Assembly (NCBI GenBank): GCA_964561095.1
Contig: CAZLNV010000001.1
Location: 1-51,702 of the forward strand
Length of the DNA: 51,702 nt
Direction: 5' to 3'
Source of the DNA: an uncultured Muribaculaceae bacterium
GTDB lineage: Bacteria; Bacillota_I; Bacilli_A; RF39; UBA660
Numbering within the stretch: position 1 is the stretch's first letter; each line of letters begins with the position of its first letter. Shown here piece after piece: positions 1 to 51,595 of this stretch. The notes beneath the pieces are model-generated. The model was not told the DNA's origin. It saw only the letters and a list, made by a program, of their open reading frames with translations, and did no database searches. Position numbers and translations under genes: made by a program.

Positions 1-123
1 ACAATTTTATTGCATTTTATCTTATTAACTATATCTTTTCAAATTCCTTTAAAGAACAATAAAAAAGTCACATTGACTAATAATAACTCAAGAGATGTGA
101 CTACATCCATGTGGTAACCAAAT

Positions 124-139
124 TTAACTCCCTATAAGA
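124..139. repeat. Left copy of a perfect 16-bp inverted repeat (ttaactccctataaga)
   Basis: Exact reverse complement of 703-718. The copies are separated by 563 bp. Confidence 0.85.
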
Positions 140-153
140 AAAAAACTACAATT

Positions 154-178
154 GAAGAATTATGCTTCTTCTTTTTTT
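154..178 (+). terminator. Weak rho-independent terminator-like hairpin inside the IR-bounded segment
   Basis: gaagaa-ttatgc-ttcttc stem-loop followed by a T7 run. The stem is only 6 bp. Confidence 0.35.
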
Positions 179-702
179 CATGCAATGTATAATTGTAAAT
201 GATGTGATACCAAAAAGATAATAAAAATAATAACGGTATGATAAGATAAAATTGTTAATTAGAAATAGTTAGCAATTTTCTTTGCTGAAGAGGAGAAAGC
301 CAGTTAAGGGATTGAGTAGGAATGGAGTTAGAACGAAAAAGATATCTTTTCATTTGAAGTAAGAGGTCATCATAATAATAAAAGAAATAATAATAAAATA
401 ATAGATTATGATACTGATGGTGTTATGTTATGGAATGGAGTTAGATGTGAAAGTAAACCTTGTAGTAAAATTGAACTTGATGAGTTAAATTCACTATTAG
501 CAGAATTTAAAGGTGATAGTGATGTATAACGCTAATATTAGAATCATAAATTTTATTATGAATAAAAATAATAATTTATCAGATGATAAACAAAAAATAT
601 TTAAAGAGTTGATTATAAAATACTTATTAAAAAAAATAGTAGGTGAAAACTTAAATGGAACATGATTTGTGTATTGAAAAAAACTATGTTAATATTGATT
701 TA

Positions 703-718
703 TCTTATAGGGAGTTAA
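703..718. repeat. Right copy of the perfect 16-bp inverted repeat (tcttatagggagttaa)
   Basis: Exact reverse complement of 124-139. It ends 21 nt before the recombinase ATG. Confidence 0.85.
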
Positions 719-739
719 GTGCTATTAGAGGAGGAGTAA

Positions 740-2395
740 ATGAACAATAGCTACTTAACAAATATAATGTATAATGCAGGAATATATATAAGATTATCCC
801 AAGAAGATAAAGATAAAAAATATGAATCAGATAGTGAAAGTGTTTTAAATCAACGACAAATACTTACTGAATATGCTAATAATCAAGGCTTTAATTTAAT
901 AGATGAATATATTGATGATGGGTATTCTGGCACAACATTTGATAGACCTGGATTTGAAAAAATGATAAATGATATTGTGAAGAAGAAAATTAATTTAGTA
1001 ATCGTAAAAGATTTATCAAGATTAGGTAGAGATCATGTTAAAACAGGATACTATATAGAAACATATTTTCCAGAAAATAAAGTAAGATTTATTTCAATAA
1101 TGGAAAGTTATGACAGCATAAAAAATCAAGCGAGTAATGATTCATCAACTTTTATAATTGCATGTAATGATTATTATAGTAAACAGAACTCTTTAAAAAT
1201 TAGAAATGTTTTAGATGACAAAAGAAAAAATGGAAAGTTTATTGGTAGTGCACCATGCTATGGGTATATTAGAGATACTAACGATAAAGGACATTTAATT
1301 CCAGATCCAGAAACAGCACCAATAGTTAAACAAATATTTGAATGGCGACTAAATGATATAGGAGTATCCGAAATTGCTTCAAAATTAACTAAAATGGGTA
1401 TTAAGACACCTGCTGGGTATAAAAATATAAAATATTCTTCAAAATTAAAAGAAAGAGATATTTGGACTATTCATTCTGTTATTAAAATATTATCCAATAG
1501 AATGTACACTGGCGATATGATTCAGCATAAACAAACAAAAGTAAATTATAAGTCTAAAAAGAAAATAGCATTAGATGAAAAACTATGGTTAGTTGTTGAA
1601 AATACACATGAACCATTAGTTGATAAAGAAACATTTAAAATAATTCATAATAAAAAAGTTTCTAATAACAGAAGTATAAGAATAAAAACTAATAGAAGTA
1701 AAAGATTGCTTGAAGGATTATTATATTGCAAAGAGTGTGGAAATAGACTTGGAGTTTTACATAGAAAAAATAAAAATTACTGGACTATTAATTGCAATAA
1801 GTATGCAAGAGATCCAATAAGAAAAAGATGTTATCCTCATTTCTTTCCATATGATTATTTTGAATCTCAAGTATTAAGTAATTTATATAGTTATGTAAGA
1901 GGACTATTTAGTGCATTAGATATAGAAGAATTGAATAAGGAAATTATCAAAAGAACCGAATCTGAAACTACTGATACAAAAAATAATATTAAGAATCTGG
2001 AAAATGAAAAGAAGAAATTATTAACTAGTCTTGAAACTTTATACAATGATAGAATTGTTGGAAACATATCAATTGATACTTATAAGCAGATAGCAATTTC
2101 TTATGAAAATAAAGTGTCTTTAATTAATTCTAGAATTGAAGAACTAAATGGTTTAATTACAAATAAAACTATAATAAAAAATATTCCTAATTATACAAAT
2201 AAAATAAGAAACCTTCTAAATATTAAGAATCCCAATAGAGAATTATTATTTACAATAATCGAAAAAATAGAAGTGGACAAAAACAGAATGATAACAATAA
2301 TATTTAGATACAAGATACTAGATAATTTATCTTTTAAATATCAAGAAATGAATATAATAAGAAATCCATATGGTAGAAAGGGCAAAAACAAATAA
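740..2395 (+). CDS. Large serine recombinase (integrase/excisionase type)
   Basis: N-terminal resolvase-type catalytic domain (IYIRLSQED with the nucleophile Ser, DGYSGTTFDRPGF, VKDLSRLGR). This is followed by a central recombinase domain, a Cys-rich zinc-ribbon region (CKECGNRL...CNKYARDPIRKRC) and a C-terminal coiled coil. A GAGGAGG RBS lies just upstream of the ATG. Confidence 0.9.
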   Translation: MNNSYLTNIMYNAGIYIRLSQEDKDKKYESDSESVLNQRQILTEYANNQGFNLIDEYIDDGYSGTTFDRPGFEKMINDIVKKKINLVIVKDLSRLGRDHVKTGYYIETYFPENKVRFISIMESYDSIKNQASNDSSTFIIACNDYYSKQNSLKIRNVLDDKRKNGKFIGSAPCYGYIRDTNDKGHLIPDPETAPIVKQIFEWRLNDIGVSEIASKLTKMGIKTPAGYKNIKYSSKLKERDIWTIHSVIKILSNRMYTGDMIQHKQTKVNYKSKKKIALDEKLWLVVENTHEPLVDKETFKIIHNKKVSNNRSIRIKTNRSKRLLEGLLYCKECGNRLGVLHRKNKNYWTINCNKYARDPIRKRCYPHFFPYDYFESQVLSNLYSYVRGLFSALDIEELNKEIIKRTESETTDTKNNIKNLENEKKKLLTSLETLYNDRIVGNISIDTYKQIAISYENKVSLINSRIEELNGLITNKTIIKNIPNYTNKIRNLLNIKNPNRELLFTIIEKIEVDKNRMITIIFRYKILDNLSFKYQEMNIIRNPYGRKGKNK

Positions 2396-2412
2396 CAAAT
2401 CACCACTAGTAA

Positions 2413-3564
2413 CCATTCGCAGGCGGTGACGGTGCTGAAGTGATTTATGCTCTTAGGAATACATCAGCTTTATCAAAAGATATACTAGATGAAATTGAAA
2501 AAGAAGGGCAGAATGTAAGAAAATATTATCAGCAAAGATTGCCAAGTAATCCTATTAAAGATTATTATTTTATGCATAGGAATACTCCAAATACAGAAGC
2601 TGTTATAGTGGAATATGGGTTTTTGGATAGTACTGGGGATGATGTAAATCAACTTAAAAATAATTACAAAGAATTTGCTGAAGCAGTAGTTAGAGGTGTT
2701 TCTAAATATAAAAGCATTCCATATGTGGCTCCAGCTGGTAGTGGATATTATACAGTTAAAAAAGGAGATTCACTTTGGAGTATAGCTACTTCTGCAGGTT
2801 TAACAGTTGAAGAATTAAAAAAATTAAATAATTTATCGACTAATACATTAAGTGTAGGTCAAACTTTAAAAATAGCGCAATCCGCTAGTGAAAAAATACC
2901 AGAAGATTATTTGATTTATAGCGTAAAATCTGGAGATAGTTTGTATTCAATAGCCAATAAATATAATACAACAGTTAATACTTTAATGAGCGTCAATAAT
3001 TTAACGTCTTCAAATTTGAAAATTAATCAACAATTATTAATACCTAAAAGTGAAGAAGTTGAAATAGAAATCAAACCAGGAGCTGGAACTGAATATATTG
3101 TAGTTAGTGGAGATAGTCTATATTCAATAGCCAAAAAATATAATGTAACGGTAGATCAGATAAAAAACGCTAATAATTTAGAGAGTAATTTACTTAGCGT
3201 AGGTCAAAAATTATTAATTCCTACCGGAGAAGCTACAATTGAAAAAGAAGAAACTCCATCTGTTGGAGGAATTAATTATGTAGTTCAAAAAGGGGATAAT
3301 TTATATTCAATAGCAAATAAATATGGAATTACTATAGAACAGTTAAAAAATGCTAACAATTTAACAACTAATTTATTACAGGTAGGTCAAATTTTACTAA
3401 TACCAGGTACAACTAATTATGCTACTTATACTGTTGAAAAAGGAGATTCATTATGGAAAATAGCTAATACTTATGGAATTACTGTTGAAAAATTAAAAGC
3501 AACAAATAATTTAACTTCAAGTTTGTTAACTGTGGGCCAGGAATTATTAATACCTACAAATTAA
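2413..3564 (+). pseudogene. 3' portion of an N-acetylmuramoyl-L-alanine amidase (Amidase_3) gene with five C-terminal LysM repeats. The 5' half is displaced, so the gene is split by the element or truncated.
   Basis: The open frame begins PFAGGDGAEVIYALRN..., which is the region right after the SIHxN motif of Amidase_3, and continues through EAVIVEYGFLDS. There is no signal peptide, no N-terminal Zn ligands and no plausible RBS. It ends in five repeats of the LysM pattern Y.V..GDSL(W/Y)SIA......(V/I)..L...NNL....L.(V/I)(G/N)Q.L.IP. Confidence 0.8.
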
Positions 3565-3596
3565 AAGAGAGATATGCTAATACATATTTCTCTTTT
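3565..3596. terminator. Bidirectional hairpin between the convergent amidase fragment and the AbiEi-like gene
   Basis: aagagagatatg / catatttctctt, a 12-bp stem with one G-U pair and a 6-nt loop, flanked by A/T runs on both sides. Confidence 0.6.
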
Positions 3597-3604
3597 ATAA
3601 TAGT

Positions 3605-4246
3605 TTATTTTTTTAACATTTCTATTACTTTATTACCTATACCCATCTTTTCTGCATATAATAAAAGATTATCAATATTTTTATTTTCACTAGCAATATA
3701 CTTTCTAATACATTTATTTACTAGTTCTTTACTAAATCTTTTATCTGACCTTATCATATCACAAATAGTTCTTTCTAAATCATATATTTTAATCTGATAT
3801 CCCATTTTATCTGTAAATTCCATAATACCCAAATTAAACCATTCTTTTTTTACATAAAATATATCATGCTTTTTAAAACCTTCACAAAATACATTATTTA
3901 TACATGTAGCCTGAATGTTGTCTGGTTCATTTACTAGTTTATGAAAATATAAAGCAGTTAAATGTGAGTAAACTGTTTTAGGAAATCTCAATTGAAAGGT
4001 ATAATATATATCTTCTTTTGTTTTTCTAGATATATAGATACCACGTTCTACATTTATAATTTCACCATAATCTACTAAAAATGTTAAATAGTCTCTAGCA
4101 ATTCTATTTTGTGTCAATTCCTTTGTAGTTAAATAGCCATTGTTTTTATTTAGCAAATACTTTATTTTTTCAGTATTTGAAAATAATCTAGTTTTTCTAG
4201 TTAATTTTTTCTTAACACTTAGTATATATTTATTATTATCATTCAT
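3605..4246 (-). CDS. AbiEi-like (type IV toxin-antitoxin antitoxin family) DNA-binding protein, without a partner gene
   Basis: N-terminal wHTH-like segment GYLTTKELTQNRIARDYLTFLVDYGEIINVERGIYI and a C-terminal ERTICDMIR motif, both typical of the AbiEi_4 family. The start is moved to the ATG (MNDNNKY) preceded by a GAGGT RBS. Confidence 0.5.
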   Translation of the reverse strand: MNDNNKYILSVKKKLTRKTRLFSNTEKIKYLLNKNNGYLTTKELTQNRIARDYLTFLVDYGEIINVERGIYISRKTKEDIYYTFQLRFPKTVYSHLTALYFHKLVNEPDNIQATCINNVFCEGFKKHDIFYVKKEWFNLGIMEFTDKMGYQIKIYDLERTICDMIRSDKRFSKELVNKCIRKYIASENKNIDNLLLYAEKMGIGNKVIEMLKK

Positions 4247-6767: not shown

Positions 6768-6796
6768 ATTATAACATATGAATTACTTTATTTCAA
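6768..6796 (-). promoter_or_regulatory. Sigma-A type promoter for tRNA-Trp
   Basis: On the minus strand, TTGAAA, a 17-nt spacer, then TGtTATAAT (extended -10). It sits 23 nt upstream of the mature tRNA 5' end. Confidence 0.6.
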
Positions 6797-6827
6797 CAAA
6801 ACTCATATAATATTTTAGGTGATTTAT

Positions 6828-7253
6828 ATGCTTTTAGCGTATACTACAAAGGAATTAGATTTATGTGCAAGACTTATGAGAGCTGAAGCGTTAGCTGAGG
6901 GTGACCTTGGCATGCTTATGGTTGGCAATGTAATTGTTAATAGAGCAATTGCTAATTGTTTGGATTTTAAAAATATTAGAACTATAACTGACGTTGTGTA
7001 TCAATCTCCCGGAGGTTTTACCGGGAAAAACAGTTCATTATTTAGTGGAAGTGCAACTACAAAAGAAAAAGAACTTGCAAAAAGAGTATTAAAGGGTGAA
7101 TATTATCATCCTGCCACTAATGCATTATGGTTTTACGCTCCTTCAGCCGGAAGCAGTTGCAAAAGCACTTGGTTTAATCAAAGAAATTCAGGAAAATATA
7201 AAAGTCATTGTTTTTATGTTCCGGATCCAGGAATATGTGAACAACTATATTAA
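6828..7253 (+). CDS. cwlJ: CwlJ/SleB-family spore cortex-lytic cell wall hydrolase (Hydrolase_2 domain)
   Basis: LCARLMRAEALAEGDLGMLMVGNVIVNRA closely follows the CwlJ/SleB catalytic-domain N-terminus, and the roughly 141-aa size matches CwlJ. The start is moved to the ATG behind an AGGTGA RBS. A CATATAAT motif upstream resembles a sigma-E -10 element. Confidence 0.75.
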   Translation: MLLAYTTKELDLCARLMRAEALAEGDLGMLMVGNVIVNRAIANCLDFKNIRTITDVVYQSPGGFTGKNSSLFSGSATTKEKELAKRVLKGEYYHPATNALWFYAPSAGSSCKSTWFNQRNSGKYKSHCFYVPDPGICEQLY

Positions 7254-17817: not shown

Positions 17818-17993
17818 ATTAGATAAATAAAAATTTTATTATTTTATATAAGATTGAATTTTGCAGATAGTTTAGTAAGTTTAAAATTTAATATTTGGTC
17901 TTATCAGAAATTTAATTTTATATGACTAAAATTAAATTTTACTCATTTGCGACCATTTTTAGAGTGTGTTAATATGCTTTAAAAGGAGAAATT

Positions 17994-18863
17994 ATGAGCA
18001 AAGTTTTAGAAGTTAAAAATCTAACAAAAGTTATTGGAAAAAAGAAAATATTGGATGACATTACATTTGATTTAGAAGAAGGCAAAATTCTTGGAATTAT
18101 TGGTAGAAATGGTGCTGGAAAGTCAATGCTATTAAAAACAATTGTTGGATTGTGTCATTTTACTAATGGGACTATTAAACTAAATGGATATGATATTAGT
18201 AAAGAGTATGAAAATGCAATAAGAAGTGTTTGGTGTGTTATAGAAGTTCCTGCAATGTACGAAAACTTAAGTGGTAAAGAAAATTTAGAAATTTTTAGAA
18301 TGATGTTTAAAAATGTTTCTGATAAAAAAATTCATGAAATAATTAAATTGGTTTCTCTAGAAGATAGTCAATATAAAAAATTAAAAATTTATTCGCTTGG
18401 TATGAGGCAAAAGCTTGGTATTGCGGTGGCACTTATTAACAATCCAAAATTATTGATACTCGATGAACCAACCAGCAGTTTAGATTCCATTGATATATTA
18501 GACTTGAAAAAATTTTTAAAATCTTTAAAAAAAACAAGCGTAATTATATCTTCTAATATGTTAAATCAAATAGAGTCAGTTTGTGATGAAGTTATATTTA
18601 TGAATGAAGGAAAAATTATTAATAGAAAAGAAATTAGTAAAATAAAAAAGTGTAAATTCTCTGTAGATGATGGAGAAAAAGCAAAAAAAATATTATCAAA
18701 TTGCAATTTTAATACTGAATTAGAAGTGAGTAAGGATGAAGTTTCTATCATAAATAAAATATTAGTAAAAAATAATGTAAAAGTATTTAAAATAAGTGAA
18801 GATACATGCAACTATAATTTAGAAAAAGAATTTTTATCTTTACTAGAGGATGAATGTGAGTAA
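17994..18863 (+). CDS. ABC transporter ATP-binding protein (ABC-2 exporter type)
   Basis: Walker A GRNGAGKS, signature SLGMRQKL, Walker B LLILDEPTSSLD. Confidence 0.88.
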   Translation: MSKVLEVKNLTKVIGKKKILDDITFDLEEGKILGIIGRNGAGKSMLLKTIVGLCHFTNGTIKLNGYDISKEYENAIRSVWCVIEVPAMYENLSGKENLEIFRMMFKNVSDKKIHEIIKLVSLEDSQYKKLKIYSLGMRQKLGIAVALINNPKLLILDEPTSSLDSIDILDLKKFLKSLKKTSVIISSNMLNQIESVCDEVIFMNEGKIINRKEISKIKKCKFSVDDGEKAKKILSNCNFNTELEVSKDEVSIINKILVKNNVKVFKISEDTCNYNLEKEFLSLLEDECE

Positions 18864-19779
18864 ATTAATAAATTTAGAATTAACTAAATTATTTAAAAGT
18901 AATGGAATCAAAGTGCTATTTATTATTTTAGCTGCTACATGTTTCTTTACAATTTACTTTTCAAATAAAAAAGAAAATTATACTATTAATAGTTATAATT
19001 TAGTTGAAGATGCTACCGAAAAATCAAAAATCTATAACGACAAAGTCAATGATTACATTAAAATTTATAATTATTATAAAGAAAATAATTTTGACATGAA
19101 TTTAAAAATAAAAGGAATTATTGATACTGGTATAAATGTAATTATATTTTTATCAATTGCAGTCATTATTATATCTTCATCAAGTATAAATGAAGATATA
19201 AATAGAGAAAATATTAAAGAGTTATTAACAAAGCCACATAAAAGATGGAAAATATTACTATCTAAAACAATAAGCGTTTTTATAATTATTTTCTTACTAT
19301 CTATGTTTACATATGCGTCGTATACATTATTTGTAAGCATAATAACCAACACTAATATATTTTATATTAAAGAAATAATTATACGAAACGGCAATATAAA
19401 AATAAGTTACTATTATTTAACATTTTTAAAAGAAATATTCATAAATTCAATACCATTATATTTTATTAGTATAATGACCATATTCTTATCCCTTATTATA
19501 AATAATTCTAAGGTGGTAAATGCAATTATGATATCTATAGTATTAATGAGTACTTTAATATTTCAATTCTTATTAAGTATTAATTTAAATTTAATAGAAT
19601 ATACATTTTTACCTTATTTAGATTTAACTATATATAAAGATATTTATAATTTGTATTTAATAAATATAAGGTATGATATTAATTTATCTATAAAAAAAGG
19701 AATAATAATCCTTTGCATTTATTTAATAATCTTTAATTTAGGAAGTATATTCTTATTCAATAAAAAAGATATTATGTAA
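18850..19779 (+). CDS. ABC-2 type transporter permease
   Basis: Overlaps the ATPase stop. It has one N-terminal TM, a large loop, then about 5 TM helices, the typical ABC-2 topology. The GTG at 18856 is an alternative start. Confidence 0.55.
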   Translation: MNVSKLINLELTKLFKSNGIKVLFIILAATCFFTIYFSNKKENYTINSYNLVEDATEKSKIYNDKVNDYIKIYNYYKENNFDMNLKIKGIIDTGINVIIFLSIAVIIISSSSINEDINRENIKELLTKPHKRWKILLSKTISVFIIIFLLSMFTYASYTLFVSIITNTNIFYIKEIIIRNGNIKISYYYLTFLKEIFINSIPLYFISIMTIFLSLIINNSKVVNAIMISIVLMSTLIFQFLLSINLNLIEYTFLPYLDLTIYKDIYNLYLINIRYDINLSIKKGIIILCIYLIIFNLGSIFLFNKKDIM

Positions 19780-19783
19780 ATAT

Positions 19784-20692
19784 CTATTTTAAAAATCCTT
19801 CTAGTATTTTTGTTTCGGCTTGGCTTTCATCTAAACCAAGTGTCATTAATTTTTTAATTTGATCACTTGCTATTTTACCTATTATTGCTTCGTGAGACAT
19901 CTCTGCTTCGGAAGAGAGTGCAACGATTTCTGGGGTAGAACTAACCTTAGCCTTATCCATTATGATTGCATCGCATGAAACATGTGCAAAACATTTAGTG
20001 TCTCCTTCTGTTTTTGAATAAAATCTTTGACTAGAATTTTTTCTGGCTACTGATTTTGATGATATATCGGCACTACTATTTTTACCTTGTAATTTAATAT
20101 TAAATCTGGTTTCTATAGATTCATTATTATCAGACATAAGGGTTTCTTTAATATTTAAAGAACTGTTATTATTTAATACAGCTTCTGTGCTACGCACTGA
20201 ATTATCAATTCCGCTTATTTGTGCGGTTTCCATATCAAATGATGTATTTTCATTTTGATTAATAACAGTTGTTGTGTTTATATATTTATTATTTTCCATC
20301 TTACCTTCAGCATAATGTTTCTCAATATATTTAACACTAGAACCTTTTTCAATATGAAAAGTATGTATGCCATTATGAGTTGATTTTGTTTCACAATCAT
20401 TATGGATGCCACACCCTGCAACTATTGTTACATTACAATTTTTCCCAATGTAAAAGTCATTGTATACTGTTTCTTCATAATTGGTCGTGTCAATAATAAC
20501 TGGGATGTGAACAAATTCATCAATTGTATTATCAGCAATATAAATATCAATTCCTTGTTTATCTTTTTTTGAATTTATTTTAATATTATCTGTTTCAAAT
20601 CTACTTATAGATTCACCATTAGCTCTGATGTTGTGCGCTACATCAGAATTAATTTCATAATCAGTAATTTTATTCAGCAAATCTTTATTCAT
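19784..20692 (-). CDS. SufB/SufD-family Fe-S cluster assembly protein, short form
   Basis: Beta-helix-like repeats and the C-terminal motif SHEAIIGKIASDQIKKLMTLGLDESQAETKILEGFL, typical of SufB/SufD. The start is moved to MNKDLL behind an AGGTG RBS. It overlaps the sufC stop. Confidence 0.78.
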   Translation of the reverse strand: MNKDLLNKITDYEINSDVAHNIRANGESISRFETDNIKINSKKDKQGIDIYIADNTIDEFVHIPVIIDTTNYEETVYNDFYIGKNCNVTIVAGCGIHNDCETKSTHNGIHTFHIEKGSSVKYIEKHYAEGKMENNKYINTTTVINQNENTSFDMETAQISGIDNSVRSTEAVLNNNSSLNIKETLMSDNNESIETRFNIKLQGKNSSADISSKSVARKNSSQRFYSKTEGDTKCFAHVSCDAIIMDKAKVSSTPEIVALSSEAEMSHEAIIGKIASDQIKKLMTLGLDESQAETKILEGFLK

Positions 20693-50123: not shown

Positions 50124-51215
50124 ATGAAAAAATATATTGGTATTTTATTTTTATCATTAATAGTAGTAATGTTTATTAAATATTTTAATGCTGAGTACAA
50201 AATTAAGTATAATCTTGATGATCATAGTATAATAGCTAAATATGAAAATGGAAGGTATTATGTAGAAATAGATGGTAAATATAATTTTGATATTTATAAA
50301 TCAAGAGGCTTAAAAAAATTAAAAATAAAACAAATAAAAGTTATAGATGATAATGAGTTATATTGTATTATTCCAATAATTGATGGAATTAATACTTACC
50401 CGCTATGCTACTTGAATGAAGAATATATTGATTATAATTTAGTGGACAATGAAGAAATTAATGAATATAAAAATACATACACGGATCACTTAAAAGGTAA
50501 TTTTTCTTTTAATAATAATTTGAATAAAAAAGAATACATTCTTTTATGGAATTACAAAGGATTTTATAGAATGAATGGTGAAGATATAAATACAATTAAT
50601 TTATTTAAAGAAGGCAAGTATGACAATAATTTAATGTGTCAGATAAATAATGAACTTTTATTTCCAGATTATAAAGAAGAATATAATTTTAAAGTTTTCT
50701 ATTTATTGGATATTGGAAATGGCAATAAGAAAACAATAGAAAGTAAGTATGAATTTAGTTATGACGGATACATAGTAGGGAATATTAATAATAAGATATA
50801 TTTTTATGATAATAAAAATTCTAAGTTATATGAAATTAATATTAAAAAATCAGAAATAAAACTAATTGGTTCAGAAGAATTAGGATATATAAAATATATT
50901 AATAAAAAACAAGTTGTGGCTAAAAAAAGTGAATATAAAAATCAAGAAATTAATTATATTAATGAAAAATCAAATTATAAATACTCAGTAGAAAATAATA
51001 ATTTATATAAAGTTATAAACGATAATGAGAATATCAAGATTAAAATATTTAATGGTGAAAAAATTAAGGTAATAAAAGAAAACAATAATGATTTATATTT
51101 TATTTCAAATGATATTATGTATAAATACAATCCATCTATTGGATATATTAAAATATTTAATTATTTTGAACTTAATTTTAATACAAATAATATTATTTAT
51201 ATATATAATAAATAA
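50124..51215 (+). CDS. Hypothetical N-terminally anchored protein with an N/K/Y-rich, beta-strand-like ectodomain
   Basis: Signal-anchor IGILFLSLIVVMFIKYF and a long uninterrupted ORF. I did not recognise a family. Confidence 0.55.
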   Translation: MKKYIGILFLSLIVVMFIKYFNAEYKIKYNLDDHSIIAKYENGRYYVEIDGKYNFDIYKSRGLKKLKIKQIKVIDDNELYCIIPIIDGINTYPLCYLNEEYIDYNLVDNEEINEYKNTYTDHLKGNFSFNNNLNKKEYILLWNYKGFYRMNGEDINTINLFKEGKYDNNLMCQINNELLFPDYKEEYNFKVFYLLDIGNGNKKTIESKYEFSYDGYIVGNINNKIYFYDNKNSKLYEINIKKSEIKLIGSEELGYIKYINKKQVVAKKSEYKNQEINYINEKSNYKYSVENNNLYKVINDNENIKIKIFNGEKIKVIKENNNDLYFISNDIMYKYNPSIGYIKIFNYFELNFNTNNIIYIYNK

Positions 51216-51256
51216 CAAAATTATACTTTTATCATAGAATATTTTAGGTGATGAAA

Positions 51257-51595
51257 ATGATAAATAATTCTAGTGATAAAAGTTTGGATACTCCTTTTTA
51301 TAGTTATTATGCAATTAAAAGTGGCGATACTCTTTACAAAATTGCCAAAGAGTTTGATATGAATCCTAAGTTAATAGCTGAGCTTAATGGTTTAAAGTTA
51401 GAGGATTATATTTACCCTAATGAAACTTTAAAGATACCTAAAAAGGGAGTTCAATATTACATAACAAAAGAAACAGATACTTTAAAAGAGGTAAGTAAAA
51501 TATTTGGGAAGCCTATTAATGAATTAGTAAGCCAAAATGAAACAATATATTTATTACCCGAACAGATGATATTTTATAAAGAGGGTGGCATATAA
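51257..51595 (+). CDS. Small protein with two LysM domains
   Basis: YYAIKSGDTLYKIAKEFDMNPKLIAELNGL......NETLKIP and YYITKETDTLKEVSKIFGKPINELVSQN. The start sits behind an AGGTGA RBS. Confidence 0.8.
   Translation: MINNSSDKSLDTPFYSYYAIKSGDTLYKIAKEFDMNPKLIAELNGLKLEDYIYPNETLKIPKKGVQYYITKETDTLKEVSKIFGKPINELVSQNETIYLLPEQMIFYKEGGI

Follow-up and report, generated by a model that had tools for sequence, protein, structure and literature searches.

A large serine recombinase island splits a putative sporulation amidase gene in uncultured Bacilli and may be excised in the mother cell

At the left end of the window (the whole 51,702-nucleotide stretch analysed, from an uncultured bacterium of the GTDB lineage RF39), an intact gene for a large serine recombinase (LSR) of 551 residues is followed on the same strand by the 3' part of an amidase gene (Table 1). 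The LSR exceeds the Pfam cut-offs for Resolvase (PF00239), Recombinase (PF07508) and Zn_ribbon_recom (PF13408), arranged from N- to C-terminus in the order resolvase catalytic domain, recombinase and zinc ribbon that characterises LSRs/serine integrases, and its predicted catalytic serine is residue 20 (motif IYIRLSQED). TnpX, the TP901-1 integrase and SPbeta SprA are its closest solved relatives, SprA being a distant one (phmmer E about 4e-15); the top NCBIfam match is XisF, far under the cut-off (81 versus 375 bits), and CcrB is among the top partial NCBIfam matches. An exact look-up of the protein returned no record, and homologues with 45-98% identity lie upstream of the equivalent amidase junction in other species. 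The amidase frame (PFAGGDGAEV...) opens at 2413, directly after the in-frame stops TAG TAA (2407-2412), and runs to 3564; as a sequence-only reading of this DNA had noted, no start codon or ribosome-binding site (RBS) precedes it. Of the 174 positions in the Amidase_3 profile, this frame matches only 85-173; it also contains five LysM repeats, and the 3' 80% of the Amidase_3/5xLysM gene lies to the right of the attachment site attR.

Table 1. Coordinates of the island and amidase features at the left end of the window.
Feature	Start	End	Strand	Basis
Left flank, not amidase	1	95	+	Sequence read
Second, internal copy of the island left end: P'-type half-site (96-~121, TGTGACTACATCCATGTGGTAACC), then IR-L (124-143, TTAACTCCCTATAAGAAAAA)	96	143	+	Similarity, pairing
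Terminator-like hairpin GAAGAA-TTATGC-TTCTTC then T7, directly after the left-end copy	154	178	+	RNAfold
Decayed remnant (C-terminal ~50 codons, without usable start) of a 160-170-aa gene	332	529	+	tblastx
Micro-ORF, 47 aa, motif FKELIIKYLL, directly 5' of the recombinase	522	665	+	Conserved ORFs in other islands
IR-R (TTTATCTTATAGGGAGTTAA) in the recombinase mRNA leader, reverse complement of IR-L	699	718	+	19/20 complementary
Predicted leader hairpin with recombinase RBS and ATG in the loop; upstream arm overlaps the IR-R 3' end	714	759	+	Predicted fold
Large serine recombinase, 551 aa	740	2395	+	Pfam domains; homologues at the same junction elsewhere
attR: P arm 2396-2421, crossover GG 2422-2423, B' arm 2424-2446	2396	2446	+	attL, attR and intact attB compared
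Amidase 3' part, residues 90-469 (C-terminal half of Amidase_3 and five LysM), stop codon included	2422	3564	+	Domain match, intact orthologues, join

The same reading had proposed that an LSR element splits the amidase gene and that a matching 5' half resides elsewhere in the genome, next to the other element end. We found this half as a 96-residue stub with its promoter (P0122), adjoining the element end on other contigs of the same species (L007-L016, L098) and coming from the same samples as the 3' part. Joining the halves at GG gives a continuous frame of 1410 nt and 469 residues with zero stops and no internal gaps relative to intact 467-residue orthologues, placing the insertion in codon 90 of 469; the proposed split by an LSR element was thereby borne out down to an exact join. 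The 90 N-terminal residues absent from the window carry no signal peptide, contrary to what had been expected of them, and intact orthologues begin MALKGIVIDPGHGG. In this species the site was occupied in all 10 contigs with an amidase 5' end, and no intact allele was detected among the protein matches. The 5' stubs and 3' parts that we examined show no disabling mutation. Decay has affected a neighbouring island gene, but neither the recombinase nor the two halves of the amidase gene. The promoter and the 5' 90 codons remain beside the island's far (left) end; its right end (740-2446) holds the recombinase and attR, and beyond it come the 3' 380 codons, which have no promoter. Judged from the sequence, recombination between attL and attR at GG would restore the amidase gene to the base, and excision carried out in silico does restore the open reading frame precisely.

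Comparison with the attL next to the 5' half and with intact orthologues mapped the crossover to AGG at 2421-2423, most likely to the GG at 2422-2423. This GG is 26 nt past the stop codon of the recombinase, so that the island carries its own LSR next to the attachment site as gene-intervening elements do, and the earlier placement of the break at 2413, 17 nt past that stop, was not upheld. The dyad pointed out before (2400-2406/2422-2429) exists, but its centre is about 8 nt too far left, and AAATCAC (2397-2403)/GTGATTT (2440-2446), centred at 2421-2422, is the better one. Only AGG is common to attL, attR and attB, and the rebuilt attP (...CCATTCGCA-GG-TGCGACTATATCC...) has the core TCGCA-GG-TGCGA, a perfect inverted repeat about GG, with a like geometry in L037, L040, L043 and L063. 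The window site is thus built of imperfect inverted repeats about a non-palindromic central dinucleotide, with no long direct repeats. The predicted circular attP junction reads CCATTCGCAGG-TGCGACTATATCC (also written ACCATTCGCAGG-TGCGACTATATCC) and the predicted attB junction AATGCTGGAGG-CGGTGACGG (also written AATGCTGGAGG-CGGTGACGGTGC); exact searches of IMG/VR with both returned zero matches, and a JGI metagenome scan for the P' arm found only another attL, in a different host, and no free attP. We conclude that the window begins inside a mobile island that was inserted by the LSR (attP x attB) into the NAGGGDG-motif codons of a chromosomal amidase gene.

The outermost 95 nt of the window hold a frame that is open from the contig start to a stop at 60-62 and does not encode amidase; they show no convincing similarity to the amidase 5' half, the P arm or any of the loci compared and probably represent the end of another island segment, arranged in tandem to the left. 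After their amidase 5' stubs, L015 and L007-L016 have a 94% identical counterpart of the adjoining left-end copy, as does L097 from a different host species, in which the P' arm is identical. Hairpins similar to the terminator-like one of the window (which is under the GC threshold of our terminator scan) occur downstream of the left end in L015 and L023. Full versions of the decayed gene were found by tblastx in other islands (L036, 139-654; L019, 2346-2810; L069, 7612-8097), and its counterpart in L103 encodes an HTH_36 protein. Homologues of the micro-ORF, 27-61 residues long and mostly equipped with an RBS, lie upstream of the LSR in 10 other islands (11 with the window). The micro-ORF has no family match and, in the five islands searched, no sporulation promoter, and we regard it as a candidate recombination directionality factor or regulator.

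The pairing between IR-L, at the island left end, and IR-R, in the leader of the recombinase mRNA, is island-specific and co-varies across islands. This complementarity is present and co-varying in seven of eight independent islands, among them islands that belong to a second LSR family and occupy a second site (see below), and IR-L is found at a fixed distance from the junction on the host-promoter side, wherever the recombinase lies. The topology of the predicted leader hairpin recurs in L037, L040, L043, L069 and L103, and L063 has neither hairpin nor inverted repeat. An Rfam scan of positions 1-4000 matched no family, and a search of five islands for sigma-E or sigma-K promoters, before the recombinase or micro-ORF or elsewhere, revealed nothing consistent. 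One sigma-K-like motif on the minus strand of the window (428-402) is within chance expectation.

In relatives, the amidase gene is either intact or shows the same break, with an LSR upstream wherever there is sufficient upstream sequence, in line with what the sequence-only reading had anticipated. Among the best 80 species-representative loci, at least 14 are split at the GGG-codon site (break at residues 82-90); in 4, an LSR from a distant family has split the gene at a second site (GHGG). An LSR homologue was found upstream in 10 of the at least 14, the remainder having too little upstream sequence or a matching P arm only. The two LSR families are about 31-36% identical and are aimed at two motifs of one sigma-K-type gene. 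In a protein search with the N-terminal part, 117 of 120 matches were stubs ending at most 45 residues past NHxNAG, with 70 different tails; this search is length-biased, and the ratio of stubs to intact genes was therefore taken from the genome scan. The break and the LSR occur together on single long contigs of other species (L037, L040, L043, L063, L103). Island sizes range from 2.3 to >10 kb, complete ones at this site in relatives measuring 5.7-9.7 kb, and the recombinase DNA of L062 is 96.6% identical to that of the window at only 67% identity of the amidase. The 2.3 kb visible in the window are without cargo, the left part of this genome's island and its cargo being located outside the window; related islands are defence islands that carry Gabija genes (GajA, 8.7e-140; GajB, 3.2e-110), type IIG and type I restriction-modification genes, HsdRMS, AAA_13, Abi_2, HipA and MazE, and in L103 3.2 kb of cargo lie between recombinase and attR. 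Nearly all island genes are co-oriented. Phage structure, packaging or lysis genes were absent from the visible island of the window, from the five islands followed end to end (L037, L040, L043, L063, L103) and from the first 10 kb of the larger ones; the prophage- or skin-like size implied earlier does not fit the related islands seen in full, which are small. These data show that the amidase gene is a recurrent target of an island family that moves between species with anti-phage defence cargo.

Directly 5' of the amidase RBS, the sigma-K-type motif AC-N16/17-CATAnnnTA is present in 37 of 63 distinct upstream regions and its -10 box alone in 53 of 63, against backgrounds of 0.073 and 0.71 per kb, respectively. 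The same motif lies directly 5' of the cotJ operon, of a cwlJ/sleB-like gene and of a LysM gene in the window. The amidase matches no NCBIfam equivalog, the best amidase model being CwlD, far under its cut-off. CwlC of Bacillus subtilis is a sigma-K-dependent mother-cell lysis amidase; like CwlC, the rebuilt protein lacks a signal peptide, begins with Amidase_3 at residue 1 and has wall-binding repeats in its C-terminal part, and its gene is preceded by a sigma-K-type promoter, although its repeats are LysM rather than SPOR and the function here is a predicted one. Architecture and promoter motif are thus in line with the CwlC type, and because the protein lacks a signal peptide, has LysM repeats and is preceded by a conserved sigma-K-type promoter, in a window whose cotJ and cwlJ-like genes share that promoter type, it is most likely a CwlC-like late mother-cell lytic enzyme. 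The earlier guess of a mother-cell gene gains support from the same promoters, and motif conservation together with insertion in codon 90 places the island inside the coding region of this predicted mother-cell gene. Speaking against a sporulation role, some related orders include members that do not sporulate (PMC10868615), and for this uncultured lineage sporulation is only a prediction.

We consider it probable that the recombinase island splits a sporulation amidase gene and is excised in the mother cell to rebuild the amidase. LSR-dependent rebuilding is known for sigK, spsM, spoVFB, gerE and yabG (PMC4191935, PMC5595907, PMC5025042, PMC10747680), and excision during sporulation, as for skin, SPbeta and gin, is the best reading of our analysis. 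Most likely, the island would be excised in the terminally differentiated mother cell, as are skin, SPbeta, vfbin, gin and yin; the amidase would be rebuilt there, and the forespore genome would keep the island. Excision probably needs a directionality factor, for which the micro-ORF is the candidate, and it may be triggered through the co-varying complementarity of the recombinase leader to the island left end, which the amidase promoter would transcribe. Such a left-end complement of an LSR mRNA leader is new and may couple the host promoter to recombinase translation. That the amidase's own sigma-K-type promoter triggers the excision that rebuilds the amidase is, in this specific form, a rather doubtful proposal. 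It would have the transcript run from the amidase promoter through the 5' stub and attL into the island left end, where IR-L, 12-30 nt long, would pair with IR-R of the recombinase mRNA leader and open the hairpin around RBS and start codon, such that translation of the recombinase would be confined to the late mother cell. The shared orientation of nearly all island genes had led us to consider that the amidase promoter drives the whole island by plain read-through, but this was set aside in view of the terminator-like hairpins after the left end. Pairing between the 5' and 3' ends of a recombinase mRNA made from the excised circle is less likely given the cargo between recombinase and attR in L103. 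A DNA-binding regulator acting on both repeats is disfavoured, as the repeats co-vary freely and the window has kept an intact repeat although its neighbouring HTH-type gene is decayed.

Excision in the mother cell has to be weighed against a possible, though less favoured, account in which the island is an ordinary integrative defence island whose recombinase family happens to find its attB in a highly conserved, G-rich part of a gene that the host can do without. The amidase would then be inactive for as long as the island stays, and excision would be rare, serve horizontal transfer and be unlinked to sporulation. The islands do move between species, and intact gene halves could therefore merely reflect recent insertion; defence and toxin-antitoxin cargo is typical of integrative islands, and conserved motifs often serve as attB, since any new host will contain them. 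A mother-cell lysis amidase is perhaps dispensable, so that permanent inactivation might be tolerated, and in one species an IS110 element adjoins the same stub with no 3' amidase part in the next ~2 kb. The recombinase, moreover, has no sporulation promoter in front of it in the five islands searched, and neither an intact allele of this species among the protein matches nor the predicted attP and attB in IMG/VR came to light. Against this account, two unrelated LSR families have settled on two motifs of one sigma-K-type gene, the stubs and 3' parts examined are undamaged even beside a decayed island gene, every contig with the 5' end in this species is occupied, and the co-varying leader complement keeps a fixed distance from the host-promoter side of the junction.

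Far less probable is that the window shows the end of a prophage serving as a phage regulatory switch (active lysogeny, as for SPbeta), with the remainder off the left window end: LSRs are common phage integrases and only the right island end is in the window, but complete relative islands of 5.7-9.7 kb have no phage structural genes, and in larger ones the 10 kb seen contain defence and toxin-antitoxin genes only. This reading was dropped, as blastn of window positions 1-2420 against phage records gave no match and tblastn against 50,697 phage records retrieved only LSRs, at most 36% identical to the window recombinase. A decayed pseudogene or assembly chimera without a partner, suggested by the window alone with its truncated gene and a contig that begins 740 nt upstream of the recombinase, is already refuted by the 5' half and the exact joined frame, by the same junction in independent assemblies from several samples (L003, L005) and by the break and LSR on single long contigs of other species.

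Excision during sporulation, which we favour, would place the island beside several known elements. The gin element in gerE of Bacillus cereus ATCC 10987 (GirC and GirX) is likewise a small non-phage LSR island and interrupts, as predicted here, the coding sequence of a gene expressed late in the mother cell; it has att sites of imperfect inverted repeats about a central dinucleotide, is possibly composite and, judged by its near-identical copies in different strains, has been transferred horizontally (PMC5595907). Its excision during sporulation has been demonstrated (PMC5595907), whereas we infer it here, and the window-type islands differ in having an amidase target instead of gerE, uncultured low-GC gut Bacilli as hosts, anti-phage cargo and dozens of different islands at the site in many species. 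In skin (SpoIVCA, sigK), SPbeta (SprA/SprB, spsM) and skinCd of C. difficile, an LSR also interrupts a gene of the mother cell, and the frame is regained once attL and attR recombine precisely (PMC4191935, PMC5499854, PMC5025042). These systems need a small directionality factor, for which the conserved micro-ORF next to the recombinase is our candidate. Skin and SPbeta are (defective) prophages of 48-134 kb, and their control by sigma-E/sigma-K or SpoIIID is known; the window-type islands, by contrast, are 2.3 to >10 kb, free of phage genes and devoid of a recognisable sporulation promoter on the recombinase side. The SCC elements of staphylococci (CcrAB, orfX/rlmH) resemble these islands as non-phage LSR cassettes with variable cargo in one conserved gene end and in stacking in tandem with repeated ends, which the second left-end copy suggests here too, but they leave orfX active, being inserted at its 3' end, use paired ccrA/ccrB, have no link to sporulation and carry mainly resistance cargo. 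In heterocysts of Anabaena, which are terminally differentiated, the LSR XisF cuts the fdxN element out of a gene, as proposed here for the mother cell, but in a cyanobacterium with another target gene and developmental programme, with a need for XisH/XisI and without close homology.

Beside sigK, spsM, spoVFB, spoVR, gerE and yabG, the amidase gene would be the seventh split sporulation gene and the first that encodes a cell-wall hydrolase, and it would extend the phenomenon from cultured Bacillus and Clostridium to uncultured Bacilli with reduced genomes from human and animal guts, where it is apparently common (at least 18 of the best 80 species representatives are affected). The many natural attB/attP pairs with matched recombinases represent a ready orthogonal integrase set, and the left-end/leader complementarity offers a testable, so far undescribed route by which a mobile element may read a host promoter. 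Our findings suggest that exchangeable anti-phage cargo finds a safe harbour in a gene that is required solely in the disposable mother cell.

As the sequence-only reading of this DNA had it, a 551-aa large serine recombinase (LSR), which is intact, lies ahead of the amidase frame, and the frame itself is indeed truncated before its five LysM repeats: a profile search matched Amidase_3 at positions 85-173 only, of 174, and the window sequence offers neither a start codon nor a ribosome-binding site (RBS) for it. With the truncated frame as query, a protein search returned uninterrupted orthologues of 467 aa at 80-87% identity; these have ...VVISNHINAGGGDGAEVIYALRN... at the point where ..PFAGGDGAEVIYALRN stands in the window, and relative to them the window copy is short by only ~90 residues. 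Since the orthologues start with MALKGIVIDPGHGG, their catalytic domain begins at residue 1 with no signal peptide ahead of it, contrary to the supposition that one was among the missing parts.

Using the N-terminal 86 residues as query, we recovered the predicted 5' half as a 96-aa stub (P0122, a protein-collection match) beside the other island end, 93% identical to the query and ending in ...ISNHINAGG-ATISMW (stop). Ten contigs from ten samples carry the stub, preceded by pheS-pheT and a gene of 359 aa; several of these samples contain the window's 3' half as well, and an ENA assembly has the stub too. All P0122 contigs read ...AATGCTGGAGG / TGCGACTATATCCATGTGGTAACCAAATTTAACTCCCTA at the junction and the window reads ...ACCACTAGTAACCATTCGCAGG / CGGTGACGGTGC, with AGG as the sole sequence common to both junctions and the intact gene. 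When the site of the island circle (attP) is rebuilt in silico, CCATTCGCA-GG-TGCGACTATATCC forms a perfect inverted repeat around GG, which is the geometry expected of a serine integrase site. The shared AGG and this symmetry, obtained by comparing the left end (attL), the right end (attR) and the intact gene, place the crossover most likely at 2422-2423 and not at 2413, where the break had been put. In-silico fusion of the stub, up to and including GCTGGAGG, with window sequence starting at 2424 restores the frame, as had been anticipated: the product of 1410 nt and 469 aa contains no stop and aligns to intact orthologues without an internal gap. The comparison shows LSR-type integration into an amidase gene that is, on paper, exactly reversible.

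Features of the window and micro-ORFs of related islands (L numbers denote genome or contig loci)
Feature	Sequence	Coordinates	Strand	Remark
Unrelated sequence	window	1-95		contig start
Second copy of island left end	window	96-143		P'-type half-site (P' arm, an island half of an att site) plus 25 further conserved bases; 94% identical
Terminator-like hairpin	window	after 96-143
Complementary pair	window	124-143 and 699-718		19/20 complementary
Decayed gene tail	window	332-529		160-170-aa gene, intact in other islands; HTH_36 in L103
Micro-ORF	window	522-665		conserved; directly upstream of recombinase
LSR	window	740-2395	+	Resolvase, Recombinase, zinc ribbon domains
In-frame stops TAG TAA	window	2407-2412	+	downstream of LSR stop codon
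Truncated amidase frame	window	2413-3564	+	Amidase_3 part, then LysM repeats
Sigma-K-type motif	window	6785-6811		before RBS of cwlJ/sleB-like hydrolase 6819-7253
Sigma-K-type motif	window	22603-22577	-	before RBS of cotJA/B-cotJC operon, 22559 down to 21494
Sigma-K-type motif	window	51215-51241		before RBS of small two-LysM protein 51257-51595
Micro-ORF	L037	7108-7191
Micro-ORF	L040	7800-7901
Micro-ORF	L035	204-305
Micro-ORF	L036	710-805
Micro-ORF	L044	3502-3594
Micro-ORF	L083	137-262
Micro-ORF	L034	6262-6363
Micro-ORF	L063	8175-8330
Micro-ORF	L043	8212-8397
Micro-ORF	L103	14951-15049

The 80 best-matching loci of one scan of species-representative genomes come from uncultured low-GC gut MAGs, with titles including Bacilli, Mollicutes, Tenericutes, Clostridium sp. 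CAG:628 and CAG:524, and Candidatus Coprosoma; a number of the submitter labels are evidently wrong. L017, L018, L032-L034 and others carry a low-GC Bacillota-type locus under the title 'uncultured Muribaculaceae bacterium', a label that looks like a taxonomic error. The relatives, among which intact orthologues exist, agree with the split read from the window: the amidase is broken at residues 82-90 in at least 14 of the 80 loci, and a same-strand LSR (45-98% identical to the window's) lies upstream of the junction in 10 of these, the remainder having upstream sequence that is too short or that matches the P arm (the other island half) alone. The crossover always falls within GGN GGN GGN codons, despite differing element arms. 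In the window species, at least four different sequences adjoin the same amidase 3' half, and the site is occupied on all ten 5' contigs. Stubs ending no more than 45 residues after NHxNAG, with 70 different tails, make up 117 of the 120 best N-terminal protein hits, a list that favours short proteins and is thus no measure of frequency. At L116-L118, from one species, the amidase stub (P0131) continues for a few more bases, through GGGD, and is followed by an opposite-strand IS110-family transposase and then trmD; the amidase 3' part is absent from the ~2 kb after the stub, and the arrangement may reflect a deletion or another element inserted almost at this motif.

A second break point in the gene, at the GHGG motif (residues 11-14), is seen in L019, L023, L052 and L069 (junction at locus position ~10001; left junctions at ~860 in L023 and ~4540 in L069) and in proteins that include P0004, P0009, P0039 and P0060. 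The LSR at this site is only 31-36% identical to the window's, and the promoter and first 11-14 codons of the amidase remain at the left junction.

Islands with both ends on one contig measure 5.7 kb (L063), 8.2 kb (L037), 9.1 kb (L040), 9.6 kb (L043) and 9.7 kb (L103), those at GHGG ~5.4 and ~9.1 kb, and further islands exceed 10 kb. Almost all island genes share the strand of the amidase. As cargo the islands carry Gabija (GajA 8.7e-140, GajB 3.2e-110), type IIG and type I restriction-modification, C5 methylase, Abi_2, AAA_13, HipA, MazE and Fic; no phage structural genes were seen in the islands examined, and LSRs in known phage records are at most 36% identical to the window's. A large island at the site in L111 carries, at 17956-20288, type I restriction-modification in which two hsdS genes of opposite orientation lie on either side of a tyrosine recombinase, arranged as in a phase-variable specificity shufflon. 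In L102 (1272-3257), a 661-aa called gene with Resolvase, LysM and zinc-ribbon hits adjoins conjugation genes; it could be a fusion of an LSR with another LysM gene, or an LSR insertion in such a gene. The recombinase of L062 matches the window's at 96.6% DNA identity versus 67% protein identity between the amidases, and in a JGI metagenome the P' arm of the window species follows a different amidase allele without any change; these comparisons show transfer of the islands between species.

On the 5' side, assembly breaks coincide with the repeated left end. The simplest reading of the repeat and these breaks suggests that the window island is a composite, possibly of two tandem units with the left one off the window: a minimal unit of ~2.3 kb, made up of left end, remnant, micro-ORF, recombinase and right end, would have another stretch of cargo ahead of it that extends to attL, as in stacked SCC cassettes. 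The micro-ORF (27-61 aa in eleven islands including the window, with an RBS in most copies) encodes an FK[DE]LILKYLIEEI-like helix, amphipathic and FKDLILKYLIEEI-like; it matched no family and is the evident candidate directionality factor.

Directly 5' of the RBS in the stub and in intact orthologues lies AC-N16-CATAnnnTA, which we take to be the sigma-K consensus, as for Bacillus and Clostridium. Of 63 distinct upstream regions in the amidase family, the full motif is present in 37 and the -10 box in 53, versus ~0.01 and ~0.1 expected per region from backgrounds of 0.073 and 0.71 per kb per strand, in keeping with the proposal that the amidase is a mother-cell gene. B. subtilis CwlC is likewise an Amidase_3 enzyme without signal peptide, with wall-binding repeats and a sigma-K promoter, a likeness at the level of architecture and promoter motif. 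The window holds seven full motifs, three of them immediately 5' of an RBS; those before the cwlJ/sleB-like, cotJ and two-LysM genes indicate that the organism has spore genes using such promoters and are evidence, at the level of motifs, of sporulation. A minus-strand full motif (428-402) lies inside the island, upstream of a 32-aa ORF (353-255); a single hit of this kind is compatible with chance (~0.35 expected). RF39, RFN20 and ML615J-28, all related uncultured orders, are predicted from published genome surveys to have sporulating members (PMC10868615).

In seven of the eight islands with both ends known (the window, L037, L040, L043, L103, L023 and L069), a 12-30-nt left-end sequence, 26-33 nt inside the island, is the reverse complement of a leader sequence whose end lies 2-28 nt ahead of the recombinase start codon. 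These sequences are wholly different between islands and matched inside each: alignment scores are 12-18 within islands versus a mean of 7.0 (sd 1.2, max 10) for 42 cross-island pairs, and predicted duplex energies -22.6 to -36.6 kcal/mol for cognate versus -13.7 (sd 4.0) for non-cognate pairs. The most stable predicted duplex is that between the true attL end of the window species and the window leader. The 3' end of the leader copy is the upstream arm of a predicted hairpin enclosing RBS and ATG in the window, L037, L040, L043, L069 and L103; in L023 the predicted hairpin and the repeat do not overlap, and L063, the only one of the eight with no repeat, has no such hairpin either. Taken singly, the hairpins have modest z-scores (-1.1 to -2.7), and an RNA family search found no known family. 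The left-end copy lies just past the stub stop codon, on the strand transcribed from the amidase promoter. Given this co-varying complement, the RBS-enclosing hairpin and the position of the left-end copy, we hypothesize an RNA switch in which sigma-K activation would produce a stub transcript including the left-end copy, and this transcript would open the leader and unlock recombinase translation.

We infer that the island would be excised, and the amidase rebuilt, in the mother cell. This reading is favoured by the precedent of LSR elements that lie in mother-cell genes and are excised there (PMC4191935, PMC5595907, PMC5025042, PMC10747680), by the targeting of one amidase gene by two unrelated LSR families, and by the integrity of both amidase halves in every case examined, even beside a decayed island gene. 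Against it count a promoter motif search that found no sporulation promoter near the recombinase and the absence of excision junctions from the collections searched.

Among described systems, gin in gerE of B. cereus, a small LSR element that is not a phage, comes nearest, followed by skin, SPbeta, vfbin, vrin and yin; in stacking and variable cargo the islands are like SCC cassettes. The literature searched already describes split sigK, spsM, spoVFB, spoVR, gerE and yabG, and within it we found no split amidase or account of this island family, although journals beyond that search might hold one. By its in-silico features the split amidase island would belong with the gene-intervening elements, their defining sporulation-specific excision being here only inferred, and among these it is unusual in its defence cargo, very wide recurrence, two hot spots within a single gene and co-varying RNA complementarity.
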